Below, piece by piece: positions 5,968 through 48,700 of a stretch of 64,000 bases of DNA. This DNA comes from an uncultured Verrucomicrobiota bacterium. Its GTDB lineage: Bacteria; Verrucomicrobiota; Verrucomicrobiia; Limisphaerales; UBA8199. The translations under genes and the position numbers were made by a program. Position 1 is the first letter of the stretch. Each line of letters opens with the position of its first letter. Where the stretch lies: positions 11,137-75,136 of the forward strand of contig CAYNZC010000005.1 of assembly GCA_964401575.1 (NCBI GenBank), read 5' to 3'. Below the pieces are notes generated by a model, which saw only the letters and a list, made by a program, of their open reading frames with translations, was not told the DNA's origin and searched no databases.

Positions 5968-7515
5968 TCAACGCAAGGGGGCCGGCCTGGATTTCGTTTC
6001 AGCGTCCAGCAGCGTGCGGACGAGGCCATCGACCGTGTGTTCCTTCGCCTCGATGGCGGGGGAAAGGCCGAGCTTTCTGATCGCCTTGGTCGTCTCAGGT
6101 CCGATGGATGCCAGGCGCATAGACGGGAACTTTGCAGCCAGCGCCGGGAGGTCGAACCGCTGGTGAAAATGGGAGACCGTGGAACCGCTGGTGAATGTAA
6201 CCCAGTCTGCTCCGGACTCGGCGAGCGCAGCCGCTGCGCCTGTGACATCCTGAGTTTCCGCCACCGTTTTGTAGCAGGCGATGTCATCCACGATGGCCCC
6301 TTCCTTTTCAAGGTCGCGCGGCAATTCGGGGTTGGCTACTTCAGCACGGAGCAGGCAGATCTTGAGATTCTCGATGCTCTCGAATGAGGTCAGCGCCTTT
6401 GGGAGGCTGGCCGCCAAAGCTTCCCGAGGGACGACATCCACCTGGAGGTGCAGCGCCCGCAGTGCCTCCGCAGTGCCCGGTCCCACAGCGGCGATGCGGG
6501 CGCCGCCCAGATCGCGCAGATCCTGGAAGCGCTTGAAGAAATAGCCAAAGAAAGTGTTAACGCCGTTGGGGCTCGTGAAAACAAGCCAGTCGTAAGAATT
6601 GAGTTCGAGAAGAGCGTCCACGAGGCCTTGCCGATCCGTCGGAGGCTCCATCTTTATCGTGGGGACGGAGAGGACTTCCGCGCCCAGGTCCAGAAAGCGC
6701 TGTGCCAGCGTGCCGGCCTGTTCTGTGGCACGGGTGACGACGATCCGCCGCTGCCAGAGCAAGCCCTTTTCGAACCAGTTGAGTTTCTCCCGCAAGCGGA
6801 CCACGTCGCCGATCACAGCCACCGTTGGCGGGCCGATGCGCTCCTTAGCGACAACATCTGCGATGGTGGCGAGGGTGCCCGCGACAGACTGTTGGCGGGC
6901 GGTGGCGCCCCATCGGACGACCGCGATGGGCGTTCCGGGTGGCATGCCGTGCTTCACGAGAGTTGCGGCGATCTGGCCGATGCGTTCTGTGCCCATCATG
7001 ATCACCTTGGTGCCGGGAGTGGCGGCCACGTGCGGCCAGTCGATATTCGTGGCGCCCGTTTCCGGGTCCGCGTGTCCGGTGATGAGCGTGATTCTCGAGG
7101 CCATGTCGCGGTGCGTTAGGGGCACTCCTGCGTAGGCGGGCACTGCTGTGAACGAGGAGACGCCGGGAACGACTTCGAACGGAATGCCGGCTTCGGCAAG
7201 TTCCAGCCCTTCTTCGGCGCCACGGCCGAAGACGTAAGGATCTCCGCCTTTGAGGCGGACGACTGTTTTCCCTTCCCGTGCCTTGGAGATGAGCAGTCTG
7301 TTCAACTCGTCCTGGGGGATGGAGTGGTCGCGAACCCGTTTGCCGCCATAGATGACTTCCGCACCGTCTTTGGCTAAGCGCAAAATGTCCGCGTCCACCA
7401 AAGCGTCATAGACCACAACGTCTGCTTTTCGCAACAAATCGGCTCCGCGCAGAGTGAGCAGGTCGGTCCGACCGGGCCCTGCGCCCACAAGATATACTGT
7501 TCCTTTCACGCTCAT
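5968..7515 (-). CDS. cobA/hemD: Fused uroporphyrinogen-III C-methyltransferase / uroporphyrinogen-III synthase
   Basis: The N-terminal half is a SUMT fold (VYLVGAGPGRTDLLTLRG, GGDPYVFGRG, VPGVSS). The C-terminal half is HemD-like (WLVFTSPNGV...WVTFTSGSTV). Confidence 0.9.
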   Translation of the reverse strand: MSVKGTVYLVGAGPGRTDLLTLRGADLLRKADVVVYDALVDADILRLAKDGAEVIYGGKRVRDHSIPQDELNRLLISKAREGKTVVRLKGGDPYVFGRGAEEGLELAEAGIPFEVVPGVSSFTAVPAYAGVPLTHRDMASRITLITGHADPETGATNIDWPHVAATPGTKVIMMGTERIGQIAATLVKHGMPPGTPIAVVRWGATARQQSVAGTLATIADVVAKERIGPPTVAVIGDVVRLREKLNWFEKGLLWQRRIVVTRATEQAGTLAQRFLDLGAEVLSVPTIKMEPPTDRQGLVDALLELNSYDWLVFTSPNGVNTFFGYFFKRFQDLRDLGGARIAAVGPGTAEALRALHLQVDVVPREALAASLPKALTSFESIENLKICLLRAEVANPELPRDLEKEGAIVDDIACYKTVAETQDVTGAAAALAESGADWVTFTSGSTVSHFHQRFDLPALAAKFPSMRLASIGPETTKAIRKLGLSPAIEAKEHTVDGLVRTLLDAETKSRPAPLR

Positions 7516-8483
7516 TTTTTTAATTCTGCCGCCATACGCTGCCCCAATTCGGCCGGGGCGTCCATCCTGCCGTGCAGTATTGCCCTGCGGGCGGGGCCGT
7601 GCGCAAAGGAAATCGCAGTCATGACCAGGTCCGACGTACTGGTCTGGGCGAGGGCCGCGACGGGGCTTTGACAGCCTCCGCCCATTGCGGAGAGGAAAGC
7701 TCTCTCAGCCGTTACACACCGGGCGGTTTCCGAGTTGTTGAGTTGCTCGCAGAGTCTTCGGGCCACCTCGTCGTTCGATCGAATCTCGATTCCAATTGCC
7801 CCTTGTCCGACGCACGGCAGCATCGTGTCCGCATCGAGGATGCATGCCAGCAACCCCGCGGGCACGTCTGAGCCTTCGATGCGGCCATCGGGCATAAAGC
7901 TGTAATTAAGCCGGTTCATGCCGGCGCATGCGAGCACTGTTGCGTCAAGTTCGGGATTTTCGGCGAGCTTTCGCAGCCTCGTGGCGACGTTACCACGAAT
8001 ATCCGGCGTTTGGATTCCGGGGGCGATCGCGCGCAACTGCGCTTTGCGGCGGGTGCTTGATGTTGCGATGGTGCTGTCTGCGGGCAGGTCGGCCAACGAT
8101 GTTCCTGGAGGGAAGCCGCGGCCGGCGCCACCGGACTGGCTGCGATAGATCAGCACATCGCGAACATCAGCTCTGCGCGTCACAGCTCCAAGGACGAGGC
8201 CGGAGGGAAGATCCGTGGGGAGATCCTTGAGACTATGCACCGCAAGTCCGGCCTCACCGTTTAGCAGTGCAATTTCCAGCTCTTTCGTGAATAGCCCTTT
8301 TGGAAGAGCGTGTCCTTCCTGGGCCATGGAGGCAGTCTGAAGTTTGTCGCCCGTGGTCTTGATGACCTTGATTTCAATGGCGAGGTTGGGGGCGGCGCGT
8401 CTGCATTGGTCCAGGACCATGTTTGCCTGGGCCAATGCCAGTGCGCTTCCTCGGGTTGCCAGGTAAAAGACGGGGTCAGGCAT
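7512..8483 (-). CDS. hemC: Hydroxymethylbilane synthase (porphobilinogen deaminase)
   Basis: LATRGSALALAQA...IKTTGDK...HSLKDLP, with the cofactor Cys context GGCQSPVAA. ATGA overlap with cobA/hemD at 7512-7515. Confidence 0.93.
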   Translation of the reverse strand: MPDPVFYLATRGSALALAQANMVLDQCRRAAPNLAIEIKVIKTTGDKLQTASMAQEGHALPKGLFTKELEIALLNGEAGLAVHSLKDLPTDLPSGLVLGAVTRRADVRDVLIYRSQSGGAGRGFPPGTSLADLPADSTIATSSTRRKAQLRAIAPGIQTPDIRGNVATRLRKLAENPELDATVLACAGMNRLNYSFMPDGRIEGSDVPAGLLACILDADTMLPCVGQGAIGIEIRSNDEVARRLCEQLNNSETARCVTAERAFLSAMGGGCQSPVAALAQTSTSDLVMTAISFAHGPARRAILHGRMDAPAELGQRMAAELKK

Positions 8484-8530
8484 GGGAATAATAGCAGTTT
8501 GCGGTATGTATTATTGATTGCTCGATCGCC

Positions 8531-9589
8531 TCAGCCTCCATAAGCCGGGTTTGTTGTCGAGGTGCTGTCGTTTGTGGCGCTACTGTGGCCAGTGAGAGCT
8601 TTTGCCTTTTGACGAATGATTTCTTCGCAACGGACGACCTCCTCCTGCCGCTGTCTGAGGTAACCGGTGGCAATGGCCTGTAGATCGTCCACATTGTAAA
8701 GGAACACGTTGTCCATGGCGTTGACCTCAGGGTCAATATCGCGGGGGACAGCAATATCGATCAGCACGAGGGGCTTGCCGCGTCTGAGCCTCATCAGGGG
8801 GAGGAGATTTGCCCGGTCCAGGATGTAGCCGGGGGCAGACGTGCTGGAAACCACGATGTCCACACCCGGGATTTGATTCGTCCAGTCACTCCAGGGAATG
8901 GTCCTGCCGTTTAACTCGCTGGCGAGTGCGGCCGATTTCTCGGGGGATCGGTTCGTGAAGAAGAGATTAGTAGCTCCGCGGGAACACAATGCGCGGGCGG
9001 TTTTTTCGCTGGTATCCCCCGCTCCGACGACGAGCACGCTTGCCTCGTTGAGATCGGAGAAGACCTTTTGCGCGAGCTCGACGGCCACCGAAGCCACTGA
9101 GACGCTGCCTCTCTGAATATTAGTTTCCGTGCGGATTTGTTTGGCGACATTAAAAGCGCGTTGGAACGCCTTGTTGAGCTTTGGACCGGTGAAACCTCCC
9201 TTGAACGCCAGTTCGTAGGCCTTCTTGAGCTGCCCCAGAATCTCGGTTTCGCCAATGACCATGGAATCCAGGCCGCAGGCAACACGGAAAAGGTGGTGAA
9301 GACTTTCAGGCTCCGTTCTGCTGTAAATCTCGTCCGTCAGCGGATCTCTGTAATCATGGCAACCGACGAGGAATTCCTGCATTGCGGGGAAGACTTTGGC
9401 GGGGGGCAGAGGTGTTGAGGCGTAAATCTCCACGCGGTTGCAGGTCGATAGAATCACTCCTTCATCAATCGTTCCCGCGTCCCGAAGCAGTTGGAGGGCG
9501 GGAGGAATTCGCGCGTCAGCGAAAGCGAACCGTTCGCGGATCACGACCGGCGCGGAATGATGGCTTAGGCCTAGGATGACGATGGGCAT
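8531..9589 (-). CDS. hemA: Glutamyl-tRNA reductase
   Basis: ILGLSHHSAPVVIRERF...LSTCNRVEIY (catalytic Cys) and NADPH-site VLVVGAGDTSE. Confidence 0.93.
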   Translation of the reverse strand: MPIVILGLSHHSAPVVIRERFAFADARIPPALQLLRDAGTIDEGVILSTCNRVEIYASTPLPPAKVFPAMQEFLVGCHDYRDPLTDEIYSRTEPESLHHLFRVACGLDSMVIGETEILGQLKKAYELAFKGGFTGPKLNKAFQRAFNVAKQIRTETNIQRGSVSVASVAVELAQKVFSDLNEASVLVVGAGDTSEKTARALCSRGATNLFFTNRSPEKSAALASELNGRTIPWSDWTNQIPGVDIVVSSTSAPGYILDRANLLPLMRLRRGKPLVLIDIAVPRDIDPEVNAMDNVFLYNVDDLQAIATGYLRQRQEEVVRCEEIIRQKAKALTGHSSATNDSTSTTNPAYGG

Positions 9590-9598
9590 GCCAGGCGG

Positions 9599-10426
9599 TC
9601 ACTGTGGATGGTGCAGTGGGGACAACACATTTGTGCCCCAGAAAGTCAGAATGACGAAAGCGAAACTGCCAATCGCGCCCAGAGCGAAACGCCGTCCTCC
9701 GTGGGCGTATTTCCAACGCATCAGGATGAGCGAGCCGTACATGATCCAAACCATACATGACCAGATGATTTTGGGATCGAAGTGATAGTTGGGGGGATCC
9801 TTTAGCTGAGCCAGCCCATAGGCGCCCAGAACGAGGCCGGCAGTGAGCAACGCGAATCCCGATACAAGCGCCCGGCCGATAATCATTTCCAATCGTTGGA
9901 CAGGAGGCAGGAGCGAGAGAAACGCCTGTAGCTTGTTGAATTTAAGGTTCCGTTCCTGGGTGATGAACATCAGGGCGGCCACACAGGCGAGACCGAAAGC
10001 TCCGTAGGATAAGGACGTAACCGCTGCATGCAGGCTGGTCCATACAGCGGGTGCACCTCGGGCCGCCGGGCCGCTGTCCAGCCCGGGCATCAGGGCGAAG
10101 ACTCCGAGTGCGAACAGAAACGGGGAGGCAAATGCGCCCAGAAACCGCACCCGTCGGAAGGCGCCGATGACGATGTAGCCCGTAACGATGGTCCACAACG
10201 CAAAGCTCGTCGCCTCATAGAGATTGGATACGGGACAATGGTTCAGAGAAAGACCTCTCTTGAACATGGCAATCGTGTGGAAAAGGAATCCCGAGAGCAG
10301 CACCAGGTAGATTACCCTGTTATCGCGACGGAAACCCTTTCGCCACAGGAACACGGCATAGGCAGCGCCTACGCCGTACATCAATACCGCAACCGAAAAG
10401 AAATGCTTGTCAGTGGGCCAATCCAC
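9599..10426 (-). CDS. Cytochrome c assembly family (CcsA/HemX-like) polytopic membrane protein
   Basis: About 8 predicted TM helices with a C-terminal WGTNVLSPLHH region. It lies directly upstream of hemA, as hemX does in Bacillus-type hem operons. Confidence 0.75.
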   Translation of the reverse strand: MDWPTDKHFFSVAVLMYGVGAAYAVFLWRKGFRRDNRVIYLVLLSGFLFHTIAMFKRGLSLNHCPVSNLYEATSFALWTIVTGYIVIGAFRRVRFLGAFASPFLFALGVFALMPGLDSGPAARGAPAVWTSLHAAVTSLSYGAFGLACVAALMFITQERNLKFNKLQAFLSLLPPVQRLEMIIGRALVSGFALLTAGLVLGAYGLAQLKDPPNYHFDPKIIWSCMVWIMYGSLILMRWKYAHGGRRFALGAIGSFAFVILTFWGTNVLSPLHHPQ

Positions 10427-10565: not shown

Positions 10566-11159
10566 CTAGAAGTTGAATTTGATCACCGCCAGGATTGCGT
10601 GTGTGTAAACATCGTCGAGTTCGGCGTCTTCAAACTCGGGTTCCATGTTCGCGAGGAACTTGTAACCAATACCGATCTCGGTCCGATCATTGATCGCGTA
10701 GTTCACACCGGCCATCAACTGCCAGGCAAAGGTGAAATCTTCGTCATCCACCTCTACCTCGTCCGAATCTGCCTCGACCATGCTGAACACAGCACCCGCG
10801 CCCGCGCCAATGTATGGTTTGAACTTTGACTGCAGCGGAAGCTCATAAACGACACTGGCGATGAGCGGGATCTGGTAGAAGTCGAGATCGACATCCTTTC
10901 CCTCGTTGTAAGCAAGGCCTGCTTCAAGTTCCAAAGCAAAGCCTTTGGCGAAGTTGTAGCCTCCGGCCACATCCAGTCTTACCCCGGGATCCATATCAAC
11001 ATCCTCAGAGTCGGGACCAGCGTCCTTGGGCTCGAGTTTGTCAATAATGGATAAGCCGGCGTCCAGCTTGAGGTAAGTTGTCCCAGCATCGGCAGCCTGC
11101 AAAGCAAGTGCCGTCGTCATCACAGCGCAAATGCATAGCCCTTTGATGGTTCTTTTCAT
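10566..11159 (-). CDS. Outer-membrane beta-barrel protein (OMP_b-brl/porin-like)
   Basis: Internal ATG 11159 gives signal peptide MKRTIKGLCICAVMTTALALQAADA. The body has an alternating amphipathic beta-strand pattern and ends in a terminal aromatic ...AVIKFNF. Confidence 0.75.
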   Translation of the reverse strand: MKRTIKGLCICAVMTTALALQAADAGTTYLKLDAGLSIIDKLEPKDAGPDSEDVDMDPGVRLDVAGGYNFAKGFALELEAGLAYNEGKDVDLDFYQIPLIASVVYELPLQSKFKPYIGAGAGAVFSMVEADSDEVEVDDEDFTFAWQLMAGVNYAINDRTEIGIGYKFLANMEPEFEDAELDDVYTHAILAVIKFNF

Positions 11160-11455
11160 AGATGTACTTGTTGTTCTTTTCCTGAATCTGAGGCTGCCGT
11201 GAATACTCATCACAGCTCGGTCACAATTCCCCTGCAAACAGGTTGCCTGACCTACCTTTGGGAGCCTCATAGGGCTTATTTGCTACAGCCGCTACCTCAA
11301 GTAAAGGAGAATTTTTGGAAATTTAAAGGCGGCAAGAGAGAGACTTTCCCGGGTTGGTAGCCTACGATCAAATTCTATTCTCCATCACGGGAGTCGCCGG
11401 GCTCCCGCCAGAACCCCCAATGCGGGGAATTCGCGGTTGGGGACGGTCATTTTCA

Positions 11456-11483
11456 TTGCCCGGACGCGGGGTGGCGGTATTAT
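11456..11483 (+). promoter_or_regulatory. Candidate sigma70-like promoter of the radical SAM/KS operon
   Basis: TTGCCC (11456-11461), 16-nt spacer, TATTAT (11478-11483). This would leave a very short leader before ATG 11499. Pattern match only. Confidence 0.25.
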
Positions 11484-11498
11484 TCTGATGACAAACAA

Positions 11499-12905
11499 AT
11501 GGCCAGCCGCGTCCTGCTGATCAGCACGAATACCTATGTGACGCCGGACCCGGTTTTTCCGCTGGGACTGGCACACCTGGCGTCGGCGTTGCGCAAGGCC
11601 GGCCACGAGGTTTTTTGGCAGGACAACCTTGCTCGCCCGCGGCCGATTGAGGAAGCCATGCGAGAGGCGCAGCCCGATTGTGTCGGAATCTCGGTTCGAA
11701 ACATTGATGACGTGCTCATCCGGACGCGGGAAACCTTTTTTAGCACCCTGCCGGATTTGTGCGGGAGGATTCGAAGCCTTAAGAATTGTCCGATCGTTCT
11801 TGGGGGCAGCGGCTACAGCATATTCCCGTCGGAGCTGTTGCAGCTTTCCGGGGCGGACTACGGGGTATGTGGGCCGGGGGAACTGGCATTGATTGAGCTC
11901 ATCCAGTGTTTTGAGGATGGGACCGATCCGTCCGGTGTTCCCGGGCTAGTGCGCAGGGCTGGCGGCGGGGTGGTTTGCAATGCTCCTTCTGCGGAGGGTT
12001 ATGAGGCCTCACTGGAGGGGGGGCTGGATGGGGTCACAGACTTCTATATTCGAAACGGCGGCATGCTGAATGTGCAAACTCAGCGTGGCTGCAAGCATCG
12101 TTGCTGCTACTGCACCTATCCGCTGATCGAAGGCCGACATCATCAGTGCCGGTCTGGCGAGGCGGTGGCGGAGGATTTTGCGCGCGCCATTCGCGCCGGG
12201 GCGCGGTATGTTTGTGTAACAGATTCCATATTCAATTCTTCGCTGGCGCACGTGCATCAGGTCTGCGAGGCGCTTTTAAGAAAAGACATCAAAGTGCCTT
12301 GGGGGTGTTTCCTGCGTCCGGAAGGGCTGACGGCATCTGCGATGGACCTGATGGGGCGTGCAGGGCTGAACCATATCGAGTTCGGCTCCGACAGTTTCTC
12401 GGATCCGGTGTTGAAATGCTCGGGCAAGGGATTCGCGTTGGAGGATGTTGTGAGGTCGAGCGAGTTGGCTCGCGCCAGGCAGATTGATTATTGCCACTTT
12501 CTGATCTGCGGGGGGCCGGGCGAGACGGACGCGACCATCGAGGAAAGCTTCAGGAATTCGACATTGATGGATGGCGCAATCATTATGGCGGTTGTTGGCA
12601 TGCGGATTTACCCCGGCACGCCACTTTACCGCAGGGCCATGGAAGAAGGGAGGATAGCGCCCGATCACAACCTGTTGGAACCCTGTTACTATGTCGCTCC
12701 CGGGCTCGATGCGGACCAGGTATTCGCGAAGATTAAGAGGCATGCGGCCACGGCATCGAATTGGGTGGCGGGAGAGGTAACGCCGCAGTATCAGAGATTC
12801 GTTGAGCGTTTGCGCAGTCGTGGCGTGCCGGGACCGCTGTGGGGCTATCTATCAATGATCCAACGACTTATGCCCGAGAAACTGCGCCCGACCCAGCAGG
12901 GCTGA
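11499..12905 (+). CDS. B12-binding-domain radical SAM enzyme 1 (class B rSAM)
   Basis: The N-terminal Rossmann-like cobalamin-binding region is RVLLISTN...PLGLAHLASALRKAGHEV...IVLGG. The CxxxCxxC cluster motif CKHRCCYC lies at codons 198-205 (nt 12090-12113). Confidence 0.85.
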   Translation: MASRVLLISTNTYVTPDPVFPLGLAHLASALRKAGHEVFWQDNLARPRPIEEAMREAQPDCVGISVRNIDDVLIRTRETFFSTLPDLCGRIRSLKNCPIVLGGSGYSIFPSELLQLSGADYGVCGPGELALIELIQCFEDGTDPSGVPGLVRRAGGGVVCNAPSAEGYEASLEGGLDGVTDFYIRNGGMLNVQTQRGCKHRCCYCTYPLIEGRHHQCRSGEAVAEDFARAIRAGARYVCVTDSIFNSSLAHVHQVCEALLRKDIKVPWGCFLRPEGLTASAMDLMGRAGLNHIEFGSDSFSDPVLKCSGKGFALEDVVRSSELARARQIDYCHFLICGGPGETDATIEESFRNSTLMDGAIIMAVVGMRIYPGTPLYRRAMEEGRIAPDHNLLEPCYYVAPGLDADQVFAKIKRHAATASNWVAGEVTPQYQRFVERLRSRGVPGPLWGYLSMIQRLMPEKLRPTQQG

Positions 12906-12991
12906 TCGAACAACTTGAGACCATCAATGAGTTGGAATGAAACAGACAGCGGGAGCGAAGATCAAGAGAACCTCACGGTTTTTCCGGGCTC

Positions 12992-14353
12992 GTGCCGTCT
13001 CTGTCTGATGGGAGGGAGAGGCTCGTGAAACGGTTGCTACTGATCGCACCCCTGTCCGAGAAGAGCTTAATGGGTGGCGGTTTCTTTTTCAGGATGCCTT
13101 GCCTGGGGCTGCTTAAAGTGGCGGCACTTACCCCGCCCGGCTGGGACATCAAAATTGTTGACGAGAAGATCGAGGCGTTGGATTTGGAGGAGTCGGCGGA
13201 CCTGGTGGGAATCACCGCGATGACCACGACCGTGCAACGCGGTTACGAGATTGCGGCGAGCTACCGCTCTCGTGGCATCAAGGTTGTCATGGGCGGGATG
13301 CATGTGTCGGCGCTTCCGGAAGAGGCTGCTGCTCATTGCGATGCGGTCGTTGTTGGAGAAGCCGAGGGGCTCTGGCCCCAGGCGATTAGAGATTTTGAAG
13401 CCGGACAGTTGCAACCGATGTACTCGCGCAATGATAGTTTCAGCGACCTGCGCAACCTGCCACCTGTGAACTGGGAGCTTTTTCGGGGTAAAAAGTACCT
13501 GCCAGTCCATTTTGTCGAGACGACCCGAGGCTGCCCGATTGATTGCGAGTTTTGCGCTGTGAGCACGGCTTTTGGCGGGCGATACCGAAACAGACCTTGC
13601 GCGGAAGTCCTTGCCGAGCTTCGGAGTCTGGAGCCGTTTGAAGGCCGTTTTGTGCTGAAGAACTGCGTGTTTTTTGTGGACGACAATATCGTCAGCAACC
13701 GCGCATTCGCGCGCGAGTTGTTTTCCCGTATTTCGGATTTGAAACTCCACTGGTTTGGCCAGGCCTCGATGAATATTGCCAGGGATCCAGAGATCCTGAA
13801 GTTGTGCAAGCAAAGCGGGTGTGTTGGCCTGTTTATCGGATTTGAATCCCTCTCCGCAGGCACCCTGGAATCGGTTGGCAAACGTGTGAACCGTCCGGAG
13901 GATTACATGGATGTGGTGAGCAGGATTCATGACCACGGCATCGGGATTGACGGTTCGTTTGTATTTGGTTTCGATGGAGATGAACCCGGGGTTTTTGACC
14001 GCACGGCAGAGTTTGTGATGAAGGCCAAGCTGGATGTGGCTTACTTTTCGATCCTCACCCCTTATCCGGGAACCCGGCTTTACAAGCGTTTGGTGGCACA
14101 AGACCGAATCCTGACCCGTGACTGGTCCACCTATGATGCGAACCATGTAGTTTTTCAGCCAAAGAACTTCACACCCGAGGAGCTGATTGCAGGCTATCAC
14201 CGCGCCCTGCAAAGCATATACACGGTGCCTGCGATCTTCCAGCGTCTTTGGGGAAATGGCTCCTGGAAGAACTTTTTTTATCCGATGAATTTCGGTTTTC
14301 GCCAGAGCGTCCGGAAGCTGGTGGCGGCAAACGGAGCAGCTGTGCCACACTGA
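12992..14353 (+). CDS. B12-binding-domain radical SAM enzyme 2 (class B rSAM, BchE/HpnP-like architecture)
   Basis: KRLLLIAPL...LGLLKVAALTP...GIKVVMGGMH is followed by TTRGCPIDCEFCAV (CxxxCxxC). The C-terminal region is of the kind seen in B12-rSAM proteins. The start could alternatively be GTG at 13026. Confidence 0.85.
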   Translation: MPSLSDGRERLVKRLLLIAPLSEKSLMGGGFFFRMPCLGLLKVAALTPPGWDIKIVDEKIEALDLEESADLVGITAMTTTVQRGYEIAASYRSRGIKVVMGGMHVSALPEEAAAHCDAVVVGEAEGLWPQAIRDFEAGQLQPMYSRNDSFSDLRNLPPVNWELFRGKKYLPVHFVETTRGCPIDCEFCAVSTAFGGRYRNRPCAEVLAELRSLEPFEGRFVLKNCVFFVDDNIVSNRAFARELFSRISDLKLHWFGQASMNIARDPEILKLCKQSGCVGLFIGFESLSAGTLESVGKRVNRPEDYMDVVSRIHDHGIGIDGSFVFGFDGDEPGVFDRTAEFVMKAKLDVAYFSILTPYPGTRLYKRLVAQDRILTRDWSTYDANHVVFQPKNFTPEELIAGYHRALQSIYTVPAIFQRLWGNGSWKNFFYPMNFGFRQSVRKLVAANGAAVPH

Positions 14354-15594
14354 TGCTTTACCCAAGACTAAAAACCAATTCGCGAGAGCGCCGGGTGGTC
14401 GTGACCGGAGCAGGGATTATCACGGCGCATGGCGCGGGATGGGAACCAAACCTGGAGGCATTCCAGCAGGGCAGGAAGGCTTTCCGTTCCGTAACGCGTT
14501 TTGACGTATCGAGGCAGCGGGCGAGAGTGGCGGCCGAAGCGGAATTGCCGGTGCGGCTGCCGAGTTCGCCTCTGTCATCGCGCCATTTGGAACGGTTGGA
14601 TCATTCCGGGAAGCTGCTTCTTGTTGCCGCCGCCGAGGCATGGGCCGGCTGCGGGTGGGAGTCCATGGAGGATCTGCCCTTTGTGTTCGGCACCACTGCG
14701 GCAGGAATGGGTCTGGGGGAGGACTATTATCGTCAGGCGGTTTTCGAGCCTCACGCGCACCGGAAGCAGGCGTCGCGGGTCCTGCATTATCAATCCCAAA
14801 CCCAGCTAAGGACGCTGCAACGTTTCCTCGGCGTCTCAGGTCCGATTACGATTCTCTCAAATGCATGCGCTACAGGCACAAATGCGATTGGTGTTGGATG
14901 GGAGATGATCCGGTGCGGCCAGGCTGAGCGGGTTTTAACAGGAGGCTACGAAGCGCTTTGTCAGACGTTGTTTGCGGGATTCGACTCCCTGCAGGCACTT
15001 TCGGTGACGACGTGTCGTCCGTTCGACAAGAATCGCGACGGTTTGGCGCTTGGCGAGGGTGCGGCTGTGCTGGCGCTTGAAAGTCTCGATGCGGCCCGGA
15101 GCAGGGGCGCCGAAATCATCGGGGAGATTTGCGGATACGGAACAGTCATCGATCTTCATCATTTGACTCAACCGCATCCGGAAGGTGACGCAGCGCTTAA
15201 ATCAATGGTTTTGGCATCTGAGCTGGCAGGGATCACTCCGGATCAGGCTGGCTACATCAATGCCCACGGCACTGGAACACCGTTGAACGATGCGTCCGAG
15301 GCGCTCGCGATACGACGATGGGCCGGCGAGCATGTGAAAGCCATCCCGGTTAGTTCAACCAAGGCCGGCGTGGGTCATTTGCTGGGTGCTGCCGGTGCGG
15401 TGGAAGCTGTGGTTTGCCTCATGGCACTACGGAACCAGTTCCTCCCGTCGCAGGGGACGGTTGAAACTCCTGATCCTGCATGCGTGTTTCCGATCGTGAC
15501 GGAAGCCCGATCCGCGCGGATTGAGTATGCGCTCTCCAATTCGTTCGGGTTTGGAGGTGTGAATGGCACGCTGGTCTTTAGGAGGTGGGCATGA
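14353..15594 (+). CDS. Beta-ketoacyl-ACP synthase (FabF/KAS II-like), catalytically intact
   Basis: ATG 14353 shares one base with the upstream TGA (TGATG). The N-terminus RRVVVTGAGIITAHG is family-typical. The catalytic triad is intact: SNACATG (Cys172), NAHGTGT, GHLLGAAG. Confidence 0.9.
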   Translation: MLYPRLKTNSRERRVVVTGAGIITAHGAGWEPNLEAFQQGRKAFRSVTRFDVSRQRARVAAEAELPVRLPSSPLSSRHLERLDHSGKLLLVAAAEAWAGCGWESMEDLPFVFGTTAAGMGLGEDYYRQAVFEPHAHRKQASRVLHYQSQTQLRTLQRFLGVSGPITILSNACATGTNAIGVGWEMIRCGQAERVLTGGYEALCQTLFAGFDSLQALSVTTCRPFDKNRDGLALGEGAAVLALESLDAARSRGAEIIGEICGYGTVIDLHHLTQPHPEGDAALKSMVLASELAGITPDQAGYINAHGTGTPLNDASEALAIRRWAGEHVKAIPVSSTKAGVGHLLGAAGAVEAVVCLMALRNQFLPSQGTVETPDPACVFPIVTEARSARIEYALSNSFGFGGVNGTLVFRRWA

Positions 15595-16622
15595 GCGTGT
15601 TTGTTGCCGGGATCGGGGCGGTAACGCCGGCCGGTTGGAGTGTGGCGGAGGCTGCGGCAGCGGTGAGGGACGGTTTGCGTATCGAGCCGCAGGTATTTGA
15701 TCAATCCGGCTGGGAGGGACCATTGAGGCTTAAAGTTGTTCCACCTCCCAGAACTCGGTACCCATTCCTGGCACATGCGCGTCTGCGGCGCGCCAGTCCG
15801 TTGTCGCATTACGCCGCGGGGGCATGCTTGGAGGCTCTTGGAGGCGCAGGGAAGGGCATCGACTGCACCCGGTTGGGATTGGTTTCGTGCCTGCAATCCG
15901 GCCCGGTTCAATATGCCTGCCGGTTTTACGAGGAATTGCTGCGGGATCCAGCGACGGCGAGCCCGGTGTTGTTCCCCGAGACGGTGTTTTCAGCGCCGGC
16001 CAGCCATGTGGCGGCGTTGCTTGGCGGCGTTCCGTGTGCTACGACAATGCTGGGAGACCCGGGGGCTTTTCTGCACGGTGTTGCGATGGCGGCGGGGTGG
16101 ATCGAGGACGGGAGAGTGGATTACTGCCTGGTTTTCGGCGCGGAGGAATTCAATCGCATTCATGCGAACGCGTTCTGGCATCTGGATAGCGCATCGACTT
16201 TGGGAGCCGGGGCAGGAGCGGTCCTGTTGACGAGGCATGCCGAGTTGCCTGCCGCAGTGGAGCTCGAATTCGTTACAGACGCGCACACTTATTCCGGCGG
16301 CAGGGATGCGGCTGAAGCGGCGAAAGGGATGAGGGCGCAGTTCGGTGCGCAAGGCGTGCGCGAATTGCTATGCGACAGCCTTGGGGGCGCCCTTAGGCTG
16401 CATCGCGCGGAAGCGGATGCCTGGAAGGACTGGGCCGGCGCGCGCCTGAGTCCCAAGGGAGTGCTTGGGGAGGGGCTGATGGCAGGATCCGCATGGCAGA
16501 CAGTGCTTGCGATAGACCGTGTGCTGCAGGGAGAGTTCGATGCTGCAAACGTGAGTGTCGTGGGTGTGAACCAGCAGGCTATTGGCGCGCGTTTTTGCGT
16601 TCGAGGAAGGAACTTAACATAA
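15591..16622 (+). CDS. KS-like protein lacking the catalytic triad (chain-length-factor-like partner)
   Basis: ATGA overlap with the KS stop (15591-15594). It has a thiolase-fold pattern ([13 protein letters not shown]...), but the nucleophile motif reads [10 protein letters not shown] with no Cys. Neither His motif is recognisable. Confidence 0.75.
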
Positions 16623-16623
16623 C

Positions 16624-17400
16624 ATGTTCAGACCCTGCATTGACTTGCATGACGGGAAGGTGAAGCAGATCGTCGGCGGCACCCTGCAGGATGACGCATC
16701 CGGGCTTCGGACAAATTACGTTTCCGACCGGCCGGCTGCATGGTACGCGGATTTGTATAAGCGGGATGGGCTCAAGGGTGGACACATCATCATGCTCGGG
16801 CCGGGGAACGAAGCGGAGGCCAAATCTGCGCTTGCGGCCTATCCGGGAGGCCTGCAGGTGGGAGGGGGCATTAATGGCGAAAATGCTGCGGCTTGGCTGG
16901 AAGCGGGGGCGTCTCATGTGGTTGTGACCTCGTGGGTCTTTCGCGATGGCAGGATTGACTGGGGGCGGATCAAACAGCTTTCGGAGAAAATCGGGAAAAA
17001 CCGCCTGGTGCTGGACCTGAGCTGCCGGACGCGCGGCGGTGAATATGTGATTGTCACCGATCGTTGGCAGAAGTTCACCGACGTTGCGTTAACGCCACAA
17101 ACTCTGGTTAAACTTGCGGCGTTTTGTGGAGAATTCCTCGTTCATGCGGTGGATGTGGAGGGGCTTTGCAGGGGGATTGACGCTTCTCTGGTCACCTGCC
17201 TTGCCGACGGGTCTCCCATCCCGACGACCTATGCAGGGGGGGCGAAATCCTTGCAGGATCTCGTGCTGTGCACCGAACTGGGCAGGGGGCGAATTGATCT
17301 GACGATAGGGTCTGCGCTGGACATATTCGGCGGCAATGGGGTGCGTTACGCCGATGTGGTGGCGTTTAACAAGAAGTTGGCAGAACGGGCCGGGCAATAG
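16624..17400 (+). CDS. hisA: ProFAR isomerase HisA, eukaryote (yeast His6)-type
   Basis: [21 protein letters not shown]...LQVGGGIN...VVTSWVF...LVLDLSCR...[15 protein letters not shown]...YAGGAKS...[13 protein letters not shown] is collinear with my recollection of yeast His6. It starts 1 nt after the KS-like stop. Confidence 0.85.
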
Positions 17401-17412
17401 GCCCGTTCTTTC
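17383..17412 (+). terminator. Hairpin terminator at the end of hisA
   Basis: GAACGGGC (17383-17390) pairs perfectly with GCCCGTTC (17401-17408) and is followed by TTTC. It spans the hisA stop and lies between convergent genes. Confidence 0.5.
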
Positions 17413-17423
17413 GGGCGGAGGAG

Positions 17424-18632
17424 CTATTCTTGAACCACCTTGCCCTCGACGATCCAAATGCCGCGGATATCGTTCACTGTTGCTGTCAAAACAGCGATGA
17501 CCGTGTACGGGTCTTTCACAAACAACGAATTCCATGCCTGGTTGCGTTTTGGACCGAGAGGAAGCGGATACGACTTGTTAGAGAAATTCCTGGCCTCGGA
17601 GTCTCCGACACACACAGCCATGCGGCACCGGTCCAGGGTGCCATCAGGACTTTCCTGGAAAGAAAGAAGAGTAGCGCCTGAAGGAAGCTGCCGCAGGCAA
17701 GGGGCACCCGCGTACCAGTCCGCAGGAAGAGGTTTGGCCAGTGCGAGCCAGCGGTTTGTGCTTTTTTCTGTGACTGGGCCGCTCCGCCAGTTGTCGGTGA
17801 GACTGGTGCGACAGATGGAAGGCTTGAAGCGCCCTCCTTCCTGATTGTCCTCGATGGCGATCACGATTCCTTTTCCCTCTGCCAGCAGCAGTGGCGAGGG
17901 CATGCCGTCACGATGGTTCTTGCGAAATGCGACACGCTCCGCGTGAGACCAGGTGCGCCCTCTGTCCGGAGAGCGAACCAGTGCGATTTCCTGTTCAGCC
18001 GTGGCTCTGAACGGAGATTCATTGGCGAAGTAAACGTGCAGTTCCCCCGAGGGGAGTTCCAGGCCGGCAGGTTCCCAGCAGCCATCTTCAAAAGTGTTTC
18101 CGGCTGTGTGCAGCGTTCCGGGCGCAGACCATGTTTTCCCGTGATCGCTGCTTCTCGCCATGCGGATACGGAATGGTTGGGTAAGGACGCCGGGGCTCGC
18201 GTGACGGCCCTGGTGGCGCACTGCTTTCAATGGTCGCTCATTCCAAAAGTACAAGAGTGTGCCATCACGCAGCAACAGCAACTCGGCATTTGTCAGCCAG
18301 CACCCGTCTTCCTCTGCCACGAGAACCGGATCGAGCCATGAGTGGCCGCCGTCCGTGCTGTGGCGAATCCAGACCTTCCCTCTTACATCATACACGCAGC
18401 CGAGAGACCCATTGGCCAGGCGCGCAATCCGGCCGTAATCGGCGCCTGCTTGCACCAACCGCGCCTCAGACCCATTCCACTCCAGCCGGGGGAGGGGTGC
18501 TGGACCGGCAAAGGAGGGCTGACCAAAAGGGATTGCGACTCCCTGCGAGAGAAGGAGAAGCTGCAGGAATGAGGAACCCAAAGCCTTGAGCCACGCTCGA
18601 CCAGATAAAATTGTTGCCTGCACTTGTGTCAT
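17424..18632 (-). CDS. BNR/Asp-box repeat glycoside hydrolase-like protein (sialidase/GH33-like fold), secreted
   Basis: Three Asp-boxes are present: STDGGHSW, SSDHGKTW, SPDRGRTW. There is an N-terminal signal-like segment. A canonical FRIP motif is not evident (RIARL instead), so substrate specificity is uncertain. Confidence 0.75.
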   Translation of the reverse strand: MTQVQATILSGRAWLKALGSSFLQLLLLSQGVAIPFGQPSFAGPAPLPRLEWNGSEARLVQAGADYGRIARLANGSLGCVYDVRGKVWIRHSTDGGHSWLDPVLVAEEDGCWLTNAELLLLRDGTLLYFWNERPLKAVRHQGRHASPGVLTQPFRIRMARSSDHGKTWSAPGTLHTAGNTFEDGCWEPAGLELPSGELHVYFANESPFRATAEQEIALVRSPDRGRTWSHAERVAFRKNHRDGMPSPLLLAEGKGIVIAIEDNQEGGRFKPSICRTSLTDNWRSGPVTEKSTNRWLALAKPLPADWYAGAPCLRQLPSGATLLSFQESPDGTLDRCRMAVCVGDSEARNFSNKSYPLPLGPKRNQAWNSLFVKDPYTVIAVLTATVNDIRGIWIVEGKVVQE

Positions 18633-19692: not shown

Positions 19693-20079
19693 CTACCGGC
19701 AATGGCCCCAGCCTGAGTGGTGTCCCCACCCGGTATGGGCGCGCCAGCTTCCGTGACCCCGACCGTAACCGTGGTGCACCGGTGTGGCAACGACAACCCG
19801 CGGCGGGGGAGCACACACGACGGGAGTCCATGGGGCTGAAGCGACAACTACCCTGGGTGCATGCACTACGGGAGCGGGCACCACAACTACCGGGCGCGGC
19901 ACATAAACAGGCGGCGGCGCCACGACGACTGGCGGAGGCGCAACCACGACTGGCGGAGGCGCAACCACGACTGGCATGGGAACAGGGATTGCAATCCCGA
20001 TGCTCACACGCAGCCCGCCGGCATTCGCCACCGTCACGATTCCGAGGAGTGCTGTCGAAACCAGAATCAGTTTTTTCAT
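19693..20079 (-). CDS. Small secreted Pro/Val-repeat protein with His/Gly/Trp-rich C-terminus
   Basis: Clear signal peptide MKKLILVSTALLGIVTVANA, then three PVVVAPP repeats and the tail HHGYGRGHGSWRAHTGWGHHSGWGHCR. The competing ORFs 19217..20197(-) and 19689..20111(+) lack any such signal. Confidence 0.6.
   Translation of the reverse strand: MKKLILVSTALLGIVTVANAGGLRVSIGIAIPVPMPVVVAPPPVVVAPPPVVVAPPPVYVPRPVVVVPAPVVHAPRVVVASAPWTPVVCAPPPRVVVATPVHHGYGRGHGSWRAHTGWGHHSGWGHCR
19918..19980. repeat. 21-nt tandem repeat (about 3 copies) inside the Pro/Val-rich CDS
   Basis: Copies are cgccacgacgactggcggagg, cgcaaccacgactggcggagg and cgcaaccacgactggcatggg. They are in frame and encode the VVVAPPP units. 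Confidence 0.85.
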
Positions 20080-45545: not shown

Positions 45546-45781
45546 GTCAAAATTGTCTTCCTGAGTTGTTTTTAGACCTGTTAAGCGACCATTGTGCATA
45601 GATGTAGCAATCTTTCGGCCATTTGGATGGCAGAGAGCAATTTTCGCAGAGTTGCATTTTCATAGTTGATTCGGGTGACTACAGGCTGGACAAATCCGCC
45701 TCGTTTTTACACAGGCAAGCTTCGATTCAGGAACGATTTGCCAATTTGGCGGTGAAATGGGACGCTCGAGAGAGATTTCTG

Positions 45782-48700
45782 ATGGAACACTATGTCCCAA
45801 CAATGAGACCGGCCCCGGGACAGCGCATGCGGCGCTTCGTGGGCGATCGGATTGTTTTCGAGGTCAATGACGTTGCGGGCAGGAGCCCCGGCAAGGGCTG
45901 GCGGGCTCTTCTTCGGACCAACCTGGGCCGAGGGGAAACCCTTCGAGCTGAAATCATAGAGTCCCACGCCAAGGGGATGCCCTTTGCAGGGAGATCGTGG
46001 CGGGACATTCCGATGGAAAGCACGCCCAGCGGTTGGAGGCTCGATCTGACCCTTGCGGAGCCGGGCTTTTTCAAGGCAAAGGCTTACCTGCTGGATCCCA
46101 AGGGTTGGCAACACTGGCCCGATGGGCCGGATTTTGGACTCGCCGTCCACCCGGATCATTCGCGCACGGCCAACACGGTTTACTGCGCTTTTCCGCGCAT
46201 GTTTGGAGAGACCAGGACTACCGAGAAGCTTGAGCCGTCAGCAGATGTGGCAATCGAGGTGCTGGATGGCTGCGGCTACGCGGTAATTCCTCCATCGGGA
46301 AAACTGCGGGATTTGGCGGCGCAGATTCCACACATCTTTGGGCGCCTCGGTTGCCGGGTGCTGCACCTGCTCCCGGTGAACCCGGTGCCGACGACCTACG
46401 CCCGATTTGGCCGGTATGGCAGCCCCTATGCCGCGCTGGACCTGGCAGGGGTCGACCCGGCGTTGGTGGTTTTCGACAGACATTCCACCGGGGCTGAGCA
46501 GTTCCAGGAACTAACCAGCGCCGCCCACTTGCACGGGGGCAGGGTCTTCCTGGACATTGTTGCGAATCACACAGGCTGGGGTTCGAATTTGCAGGAGAAT
46601 CATCCTGAATGGTTTCTGCGTGCCGGCTCGGGAGAGTTTAAGAGCCCCGGGGCATGGGGGGTGACATGGGAGGATCTCGTGGAACTCAAGCACACAACCG
46701 TCGGACTGTGGGATAACCTTTCGGAAGTATTTCTGACCTGGTGCCGAAGGGGGGTGGACGGTTTCCGATGCGATGCGGGCTATATGGTGCCGGTTCCCGC
46801 CTGGCAATACATCATTGCGCGCGTTCAACAGGAATTTCCCGACATCGTCTTCTTTCTGGAGGGGTTGGGGGGGGCATGGGAAGCCACAGAGGCGTTGCTC
46901 ACTGAGGGCGGCATGCAATGGGCCTACTCGGAGCTCTTTCAGAATTACTCTGGCCCGGAAGTGGCCCGTTATCTGGATCATTCTATCTCAAAAAGCCGGG
47001 ATGTGGGGCTGCTTGTGCATTATAGCGAGACGCACGACAATGACCGGTTGGCCGCACGCGGTCGCCAGTGGTCGCTTCTGAGGAACCGATTGTGCGCCTT
47101 AACCTCGGACAATGGCGGTTTCGGATTCACCTGTGGCGTGGAGTGGCTGGCGACAGAGAAGATCAAGGTTCACGGCAGGCCCCCGATGCGGTGGGGCGCG
47201 CCGGACAACATCATTGACGAACTCTCGAGGCTGAACGGCTTGCTTTTGAATCATCCCTGCTTTTTTGACGGGGCCGTGGTGGAAAGACTGACGGAACCGG
47301 ATTCGCAAGTCGTTGCCTTGCTCCGAACTTCTGCTGAGAGTCGGGACTCTGTCATAGTGCTGGTGAATGCTGACCTTTTCAATGAGCGTACATTCACTCC
47401 GGAGCCTTCACATCAGGAGAAGATTACGCGACTTTTCGGCCCGGAAGGGCTGGAGGGTTGCAGCGAGCTGCTCGGTCAGCCCAAACCCAGAATTTCGCAT
47501 GGAGAACGGGTGGTAATCACGCTTGCGCCCGGGACGGCCTATTGTTTGGGGTTTGCCCCGGGAGATTTCGCGGGTGAGGCGTACCGTCGGGCGCGTGCTC
47601 GGGCTGCGTGGGCGATAAGAGCGTTGAATTCTCTGTTACCGGTCGAGAAGATCCCGCTGGCTGACTGGCGGGAGCTCTCGAAAATGGTTGATAAGGATCC
47701 GGCAGGATTTCTTGGTGCTGTGTCGCAGCTTGAAGCCGGGATGCTCGAACTTGCCGAACGGGCAGCTCAAATCCCAATCCCGACCGGATACCTGCCGGTG
47801 GTGGAGTGGGGGCTGGCGGACGTCAACCGTGTTACTCTGGTGCCGCCAGGGCATTGGGTTCTTATTTGTGACAGCAAGCCGTTTCGTCTTTGTCTCGATT
47901 CCGGCAGTGGGCGCAAAGCGAACCTTGAATCCGTTCAAGTCACAGCAGGACACGTGGCGGCCATCCCGCCCGGTTGGCCTGCGGGGGACTCGATGCTGCG
48001 GTTGGAGCGCTTTGATACCGAGCGACGGCAGGCTGCGGCCACGCTTCGTTTTATTCCCGAGGAGTTTTCGTCTGAACTTACCGTTGCCAAGCCTCGCCAA
48101 AACGACCTGTTGCTGCTTACCAATGGGCGTGGCGGCATGGCGCGAATCCCTTTGGATCCGGGCCGGGTCATTTCAAAGTACGATTGTGTCCTGGGCGCGA
48201 ACCTGCATCCGGAATTCCCGGTGGACAGGCATGTATTCGTCAAACGCATACGCGTATGGGTCAACGCGGATGGTTTTCTCTCGCCTCTCGACGCGCAGCA
48301 ATTGCGTCTTTTCGAACCGGGGCCGCCGGCCAGGTGGCATTTTGTTGCCAATGCGGGTGATGGTAGAACCGCCGAAATCGAAATGAGCGCCGCAATGCTT
48401 CAGGGGCAAAACACGACTGTGTTCCGCCTCTCCCGTCCTGCGGTCACAGATGCGAGGGGCAAACAACTCCCACCCAAGTGTGATGTGAGGCTGACCGTCC
48501 GGTTTGATATCGAGGATCGTGGATTTCATACTGAGACTCACCGCAATGGGGGCGCGGATTTGCATTTCGGGTCCAACACGCGGCCCCTGCCTGGTAGCGA
48601 TTGGCGGGAGGACGGTCGGGCCTTCTGTGGTTTTGAGTTTGTTCCTGCCGCGGAGCGGTCGTTGAGAGTCTATAGTGACAAAGGCCTCTACTATTCGCAG

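Follow-up and report, generated by a model that had tools for sequence, protein, structure and literature searches.

A compact verrucomicrobial gene cluster joining two cobalamin-type radical SAM enzymes to a ketosynthase and its catalytically dead partner

Clusters in which cobalamin-type radical S-adenosylmethionine (SAM) enzymes, here called rSAMs, stand among homologues of fatty acid synthesis (fab) genes have been described as 'ladderane-type' from Kuenenia stuttgartiensis and Desulfotalea psychrophila (Rattray et al., 2009; PMC2649909). They encode a B12-binding and radical SAM protein beside divergent FabF paralogues, one of them without active-site residues, and antiSMASH labels them 'ladderane' biosynthetic gene clusters (BGCs). 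Such BGCs are well represented in Verrucomicrobia (PMC7298704) and are expressed, with unknown function, in Verrucomicrobiota and other non-anammox phyla (PMC9902471). Reviews from 2026 list the ladderane B12-rSAM under 'unknown transformation', and the only acyl-derived lipids named in one of them as proposed products of radical SAM modification are ladderanes and the Jaw5 product (PMC13459092). Here we analyse a related locus within 64 kb of DNA (the window, which is the sole part of the source genome inspected) from contig CAYNZC010000005.1 of an uncultured Verrucomicrobiota bacterium. It consists of four genes on the + strand, which encode two cobalamin-type rSAMs (rSAM1 and rSAM2), a FabF-like beta-ketoacyl synthase (KS) and a catalytically dead partner that resembles chain-length factors (CLFs) and is called KSL below. 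As in the clusters of Rattray and colleagues, a B12-binding and radical SAM protein lies beside divergent FabF paralogues of which one has no active-site residues. We put at roughly 55% the probability that these genes are a reduced version of the type II KS/CLF lipid pathways termed 'ladderane-type' (TIGR04072-associated), which are related to aryl-polyene pathways; pathways of this kind are common in Verrucomicrobiota. Its distinctive traits are minimal size, a second, unclassified B12-rSAM and no accessory gene nearby. An earlier note on this DNA, made from the letters alone, implied more newness than the verrucomicrobial 'ladderane' BGCs already published leave to it (PMC7298704; PMC9902471).

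The connection to ladderane-type clusters, which the earlier note had drawn, is carried by rSAM1 (11499..12905, + strand, 468 aa). This protein passes the curated cut-off of NCBIfam model TIGR04072, a "lipid biosynthesis B12-binding/radical SAM protein" with the model name rSAM_ladder_B12, by 388.7 bits to 360, and the match spans residues 4–451 of the protein and positions 1–441 of the 443 in the model. The context named for this family, fatty-acid-synthesis homologues nearby, is found here in the form of KS and KSL downstream of rSAM1. In Pfam, the protein matches the B12-binding domain PF02310 (61.7 bits, cut-off 32.1) and Radical_SAM PF04055 (65.3 bits); its CxxxCxxC motif reads CKHRCCYC, and C198, C202 and C205 are invariant among 18 homologues. 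These profile searches, which the earlier note had proposed with PF02310, PF04055 and the NCBIfam lipid B12/rSAM model, all returned matches.

The next-best NCBIfam models for rSAM1, BzaD (177.6 bits) and the TsrM family, are both far below their family cut-offs, and among solved structures TsrM comes closest to it (6wte; E 9e-38, 133 bits). Domain order is the same in TsrM and BzaD as in rSAM1, the N-terminal cobalamin domain is clearly homologous, and the arginine beneath the corrin of TsrM is kept as R67 of rSAM1, invariant among the 18 homologues. rSAM1 has an isoleucine at the position where a glutamate of TsrM caps the unique iron of the cluster. Tyr207 of rSAM1 aligns with TsrM Glu236, a position at which a hydrophobic residue is the type found in radical methylases (PMC12931638). 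Taken at the level of sequence, rSAM1 appears to be a genuine radical enzyme that uses cobalamin, in a pocket resembling that of TsrM. In contrast to that of TsrM and BzaD, its genomic context is lipid-related and not related to thiopeptides or cofactors.

The second enzyme, rSAM2 (13025..14353, + strand, 442 aa), is also of the cobalamin type, as had been claimed for both proteins: it matches the Pfam B12-binding domain (50.3 bits, cut-off 32.1), Radical_SAM and, at its C-terminus, DUF4070, and its CxxxCxxC motif reads CPIDCEFC. It belongs to no named family, in that no NCBIfam model scores over its cut-off; the nearest are BchE, HpnJ, the MCR glutamine C-methyltransferase (QCMT), PhpK and HpnR, and of the solved structures 9ccb (QCMT/MgmA) is nearest. 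An alternative GTG start exists at 12992. However, the start is most likely the GTG at 13025, because this codon is preceded by a Shine-Dalgarno sequence, GGGAGGGAGAGG, and because the 442-aa product is the one found in public gene calls. The space after rSAM1 is therefore 119 nt rather than the 86 nt given earlier, and is the sole real intergenic gap of the unit. Orthologues of rSAM2, on contigs that also carry rSAM1 orthologues, are 69–76% identical to it, a level of conservation that none of the other three genes reaches.

That the pair downstream joins an active to an inactive ketosynthase was proposed in the earlier note and proved real. KS (14353..15594, + strand, 413 aa) aligns end to end with FabF 1j3n, with ACATG, HGTGT and KxxxGH all present, so that its Cys-His-His triad and lysine are intact. 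In KSL (15591..16622, + strand, 343 aa), alignments to FabH and to the adjoining KS place Pro157, Ser (Gly in relatives) and Glu294 at the columns of the catalytic Cys, His and His; it is catalytic at none of the three, and only the lysine is kept. The residues G155-D156-P157 are invariant in 36 homologues. KSL matches the FabF and FabH models weakly, and a sequence search of the PDB gave marginal FabH matches (E ~0.005), so that its placement needed structure prediction. An AlphaFold2 model built from the 36 homologues (pLDDT 80, pTM 0.85) best matches two CLF subunits, AntE (6smo_E) and the ishigamide CLF (6kxe_B), with an E-value of 5.7e-17 and TM-scores of 0.70–0.73 (~0.7 on both lengths), followed in rank by FabF and FabB. 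The CLFs of aromatic polyketide synthases (PKSs) carry a glutamine at the position of the catalytic cysteine. KSL has no such glutamine but the invariant proline of the G-D-P motif there; by this alignment KSL is not a canonical aromatic-PKS CLF.

We gauged how firmly the two proteins belong together with a KSL-alignment scan of metagenome contigs, the reciprocal of the rSAM1 scan described below. Both scans returned 'best 80' lists, so that all locus counts given here are drawn from such lists and the loci are not phylogenetically independent. The 80 metagenome loci come mostly from peat and soil, and in 51 of the 52 with room for the observation KS lies directly upstream of KSL. In addition, among the 977 KSL-family representatives that an exhaustive search yielded (E <= 1e-3), three (P0471, P0489 and P0534; ~770–781 aa) have a complete KS ahead of the KSL domain. 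In P0471 (781 aa) the N-terminal half is 51% identical to the KS of the window and the C-terminal half matches KSL. These could be Rosetta-stone fusions or gene calls merged across an ATGA-type overlap; together with the ATGA overlap of the two genes and their adjacency, they lend indirect support to a physical association of KS with KSL, with the proviso that the fused calls are possibly artefacts. As a separate observation, the PDB holds a solved heteromeric '3-oxoacyl-ACP synthase' pair, 9s5h / 9s5i (chains B and C), of which chain B matches the KS of the window (E 3e-67) and chain C is a weak match to KSL (E 0.026).

The earlier note had itself raised the alternative that KS is merely the housekeeping FabF of the organism, with the other genes as unrelated neighbours. 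The best PDB and NCBIfam matches of KS are indeed FabF proteins. Nevertheless, KS falls under every curated FabF/KAS cut-off, with 341.6 bits against TIGR03150 (FabF; cut-off 493.75) and 329.7 bits against PRK07314 (cut-off 387), it is paired with the dead KSL in 51 of the 52 metagenome loci just counted and is sometimes fused to it, and no fabD, fabG or acpP lies nearby. We therefore reject this candidate, which has at best a very slight chance of being right: on its scores KS is cluster-specific and not an equivalog of housekeeping FabF, and it is 56–66% identical to the KS genes of related clusters.

An rSAM1-alignment scan of species-representative genomes gave 80 loci with 42–57% identity to rSAM1, nearly all of them in metagenome-assembled genomes (MAGs) of Verrucomicrobiota (Limisphaerales / subdivision 3, Opitutaceae). 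A few are in MAGs labelled Nitrospirota, Fibrobacterota or Acidobacteriota; many of the loci lie on MAG contigs, which could carry a wrong taxonomic label. Synteny was counted in the 62 genome loci with >= 4.5 kb downstream of rSAM1. The order rSAM1-rSAM2-KS-KSL is present in 15 of these and rSAM1-KS-KSL in a further 17, so that rSAM1 lies upstream of KS-KSL, with or without rSAM2, in 32/62, at ~50% identity. Two of the 62 have other arrangements. Among the metagenome loci the rSAM1-rSAM2 pair lies upstream of KS-KSL in four of 34. Since the four-gene order recurs at 45–76% protein identity in 15 genome and four metagenome loci, the arrangement is beyond chance.

Several points weigh against reading the four genes as one lipid pathway. 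In 28 of the 62 genome loci rSAM1 has neither KS nor KSL, and in seven such loci that we sampled its neighbours are unrelated housekeeping genes, among them EF-P, glycerate kinase, glycoside hydrolases and a response regulator. Conversely, 30 of the 34 metagenome KS-KSL loci have neither rSAM1 nor rSAM2, that is no TIGR04072-type rSAM, directly upstream. Homologues of the acyl carrier protein (ACP), ketoreductase, dehydratase and exporter of such pathways were not found by tblastn in the window. In the literature, neither TIGR04072 nor the rSAM2 family had a member with a demonstrated reaction; nor did we find a paper that mentions TIGR04072 or its product name, or one that treats chain length factor, radical SAM and cobalamin together, which agrees with the earlier statement that related clusters have no assigned product. 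Lastly, heterodimer, substrate and product are all inferred.

As a consequence of the first two of these counts, the functional link between the rSAMs and KS rests on recurrent adjacency and not on obligate linkage. The co-conservation of the four genes expected by the earlier note therefore holds in part: KS-KSL is an obligate pair, whereas rSAM1 and rSAM2 are facultative neighbours. The same counts speak for an alternative in which the locus is two independent modules, the rSAM pair acting on an unrelated substrate and owing its position to operon shuffling. So does one locus (L165) that has an rSAM-rSAM2 pair without KS, beside ribosomal protein genes. On the other side stand the same order and orientation in all 32 genome loci counted above, the overlap of the rSAM2 stop with the KS start, and the finding that clusters without an upstream rSAM1 often carry other B12-rSAMs, one of them TIGR04072-like. 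The last of these indicates a general link between rSAMs and KS-KSL pathways, and we regard two independent modules as unlikely.

Related loci also show what usually accompanies this core. In metagenomes, the usual context is a GT2 gene on the – strand, then KS, KSL, FabG, another B12-rSAM (~36% identical to rSAM2) and an ACP. In many Limisphaerales loci the core lies within a larger set that includes an ACP, a fusion of an MMPL exporter with an LpxL-type acyltransferase, and a LolA-like protein, to which are added a FabA/ApeI-like dehydratase, an AMP-ligase, DUF8321/DUF8322, GT2 and sometimes a HydE/PylB-like rSAM; these larger sets end in rSAM1-[rSAM2]-KS-KSL-FabG. This accessory set is the repertoire of aryl-polyene and flexirubin pathways. 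The DUF8321/DUF8322 protein itself (~250–280 aa), regularly found between AMP-ligase and GT2 in the larger verrucomicrobial clusters (for example, at 6586–7320 of locus L166), has no NCBIfam match. Locus L111 (1–18000) has the gene repertoire described for Kuenenia and Desulfotalea (PMC2649909), with two AMP-ligases, an FAD oxidoreductase and a gene of the CrtI/phytoene-desaturase family as extras, and a TIGR04072-like rSAM of near-threshold score (358.9 bits) on the opposite strand. Downstream of FabG in this locus and in L005, L020, L026 and L041 is a third B12-rSAM family, 32–38% identical to rSAM2. Together with the extras of L111, it shows that the rSAM complement varies widely among these pathways.

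None of this equipment is apparent around the locus studied here. A tblastn search of the 64-kb window with 13 accessory families from the relatives gave no match at E <= 1e-3, which extends to the whole window the lack of ACP, ketoreductase and dehydratase that had been noted within the cluster. The pathway as drawn is therefore incomplete here, and two explanations have to be compared. The earlier note favoured elongation of an acyl-ACP borrowed from the housekeeping fatty acid synthase (FAS). In its fullest form this would be a self-sufficient tailoring module that takes acyl-ACP from FAS II and uses its ACP, ketoreductase, dehydratase and enoyl reductase, with rSAMs that branch, cyclise or couple the chain, and no dedicated partners anywhere in the genome. 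The empty surroundings agree with such a module, as do the tightness of the four-gene unit between unrelated genes and the similarity of KS, which is closer to FabF 1j3n (285 bits) than to PKS ketosynthases (173–190 bits). However, the borrowing idea is weakened because relatives hold dedicated partners (ACP, FabG, ApeI-like dehydratase, AMP-ligase, GT2, MMPL-acyltransferase and LolA-like protein) beside the same core, at 45–76% identity, and the 64 kb inspected are a portion of the genome. We thus see the self-sufficient module as a possible but clearly secondary explanation, and dedicated partners elsewhere in the source genome as at least as likely as a borrowed FAS. We see a similarly low probability that the four genes form a self-contained minimal pathway from an ordinary acyl-ACP to a structurally new lipid, methyl-branched, cyclised or tail-coupled; if they did, they would reveal the reaction of the TIGR04072 rSAM in a size that can be expressed heterologously.

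Under the reading we prefer, that of a stripped-down ladderane-type KS/CLF pathway, KS and KSL would pair as a heterodimer and use malonyl-ACP to lengthen an acyl chain carried on ACP, and KSL would shape the substrate tunnel and set chain length. The two rSAMs would then modify the chain by forming C-C bonds with the help of cobalamin. The likeliest reaction is C-methylation, since the characterised proteins most closely related to them are methyltransferases (TsrM and BzaD for rSAM1; QCMT/MgmA, PhpK and HpnR for rSAM2); cyclisation or ring chemistry like that of BchE or HpnJ may also be possible. The ACP, ketoreductase, dehydratase, starter-activating AMP-ligase, GT2, acyltransferase-MMPL exporter and LolA-like carrier would lie outside the window or be replaced by FAS II; given that relatives have a dedicated set, these functions are probably encoded elsewhere in the genome. 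By analogy with aryl polyenes and flexirubins, the end product would be a lipid of the envelope or outer membrane. Which reaction TIGR04072 enzymes perform, and what the 'ladderane-type' clusters outside anammox bacteria make, has been asked since 2009; the division into a constant part (KS-KSL) and optional parts (the rSAMs, the ACP, ketoreductase and dehydratase, and the export set) can guide the design of expression and knockout experiments.

The locus shares traits with several described systems and differs from each. Related peat-soil clusters share with the Rattray type a CrtI-like desaturase, an ACP and further rSAMs. The operon in the window, unlike the Kuenenia clusters, has no amxACP, amxFabZ, phytoene-desaturase-like or SAM-methyltransferase genes; ACP and FabZ-like queries from the relatives had no tblastn match in the window, while amxFabZ, desaturase and SAM-methyltransferase were not searched for beyond the operon. 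It also differs from anammox clusters in having four genes only, a second unclassified B12-rSAM and a non-anammox host. These differences bear on whether the locus could encode a true ladderane pathway, one that makes concatenated cyclobutane lipids, outside the anammox bacteria. rSAM1 does belong to a family named after the proposed ladderane clusters, in which the role of the rSAM is hypothetical. Yet outside anammox Planctomycetota no ladderanes are known, reports on similar clusters in other phyla (Verrucomicrobiota among them) do not connect these with ladderane lipids, and the operon has none of the four Kuenenia genes just listed. A true ladderane product is accordingly most improbable.

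Aryl-polyene (Ape) and flexirubin systems (ApeO/ApeC, 6qsp) have in common with the locus an active KS and an inactive partner. Their accessory repertoire is present in relatives of the core and absent from the window, and the KS of the window is nearer to FabF than to ApeO (173 bits). Cobalamin rSAMs are not known to be part of the described Ape clusters. The ishigamide pair Iga11-Iga12 (6kxd/6kxe) and AntD-AntE (6smo), KS-CLF heterodimers from type II PKSs of reducing or unusual kind, include the CLFs to which the KSL model is structurally closest and which are of similar length. In contrast, sequence identity between KSL and these CLFs is only 15–21%, and no ACP, ketoreductase or dehydratase lies in the operon.

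Gene order and junctions are as the earlier note gave them, apart from the gap after rSAM1. The ORF list of the window has five + strand ORFs in one orientation across 11456–17412, and the products of 468, 413, 343 and 258 aa are identical in public gene calls. The rSAM2 stop and KS start overlap in TGATG (14351–14355); KS and KSL overlap in ATGA (15591–15594), with an AGGAGG Shine-Dalgarno sequence at 15580–15585; and the KSL stop TAA (16620–16622) is followed by a single base (16623) and then by the ATG (16624) of the fifth gene. Pfam and the sequence likewise bear out the bounding elements, with a divergent OMP_b-brl outer-membrane protein gene upstream (10566–11270, – strand) and a hairpin and a convergent BNR-repeat gene downstream (17424–18632, – strand). 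The GC-rich hairpin (17383..17412) lies between the convergent fifth gene and BNR gene and consists of GAACGGGCC, an 8-nt loop and GGCCCGTTC, then TTTC; its 9-bp stem-loop (17383–17408) overlaps the stop codon of the fifth gene, and terminator-like sites are predicted at 17391–17405 and 17405–17424. The transcription unit probably ends there. Upstream of rSAM1 is a weak promoter-like hexamer pair (11456..11483, + strand; TTGCCC, 16-nt spacer, TATTAT) that matches at 9/12 positions; such sites are at chance level, with three sigma-70-like sites in the region against 2.6 expected from shuffles. An Rfam scan of the whole window found no RNA element, and therefore no cobalamin riboswitch.

The five-gene unit of the earlier note did not survive comparison with relatives. 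The fifth gene (16624..17400, + strand, 258 aa) is hisA, encoding a eukaryote-type ProFAR isomerase (TIGR02129, 383.4 bits, cut-off 229.3). Because hisA adjoins the cluster in none of the 80 related genome loci, we rejected it as part of the system; it is a co-transcribed passenger outside the lipid module. Its near-coupling, by a 1-nt gap, to a lipid/polyketide operon is a species-specific linkage, seen again only in L085, a contig of the same organism.

Upstream, beyond the outer-membrane protein gene, the window has a tetrapyrrole/cytochrome block (5968–10426, – strand), which holds a cobA/hemD fusion for uroporphyrinogen-III C-methyltransferase and synthase (5968–7515) and three putative genes named from their translations: hemC-like (7512–8483), hemA-like (8531–9589) and a ccsA-like membrane protein (9599–10426). 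The block was not seen in related loci, and its position beside two cobalamin-type enzymes may be coincidence. Further downstream, a 1507-aa protein (45623–50146) has no NCBIfam match over its N-terminal 1000 residues; its C-terminal third is weakly like an archaeal-type glycogen debranching enzyme (126.7 bits, cut-off 364). A candidate ORF of 128 aa (19693–20079, – strand), which overlaps longer ORFs on both strands, would encode a protein whose N-terminus is signal-like and which has PPPVVVA repeats and a tail rich in His, Gly and Trp.

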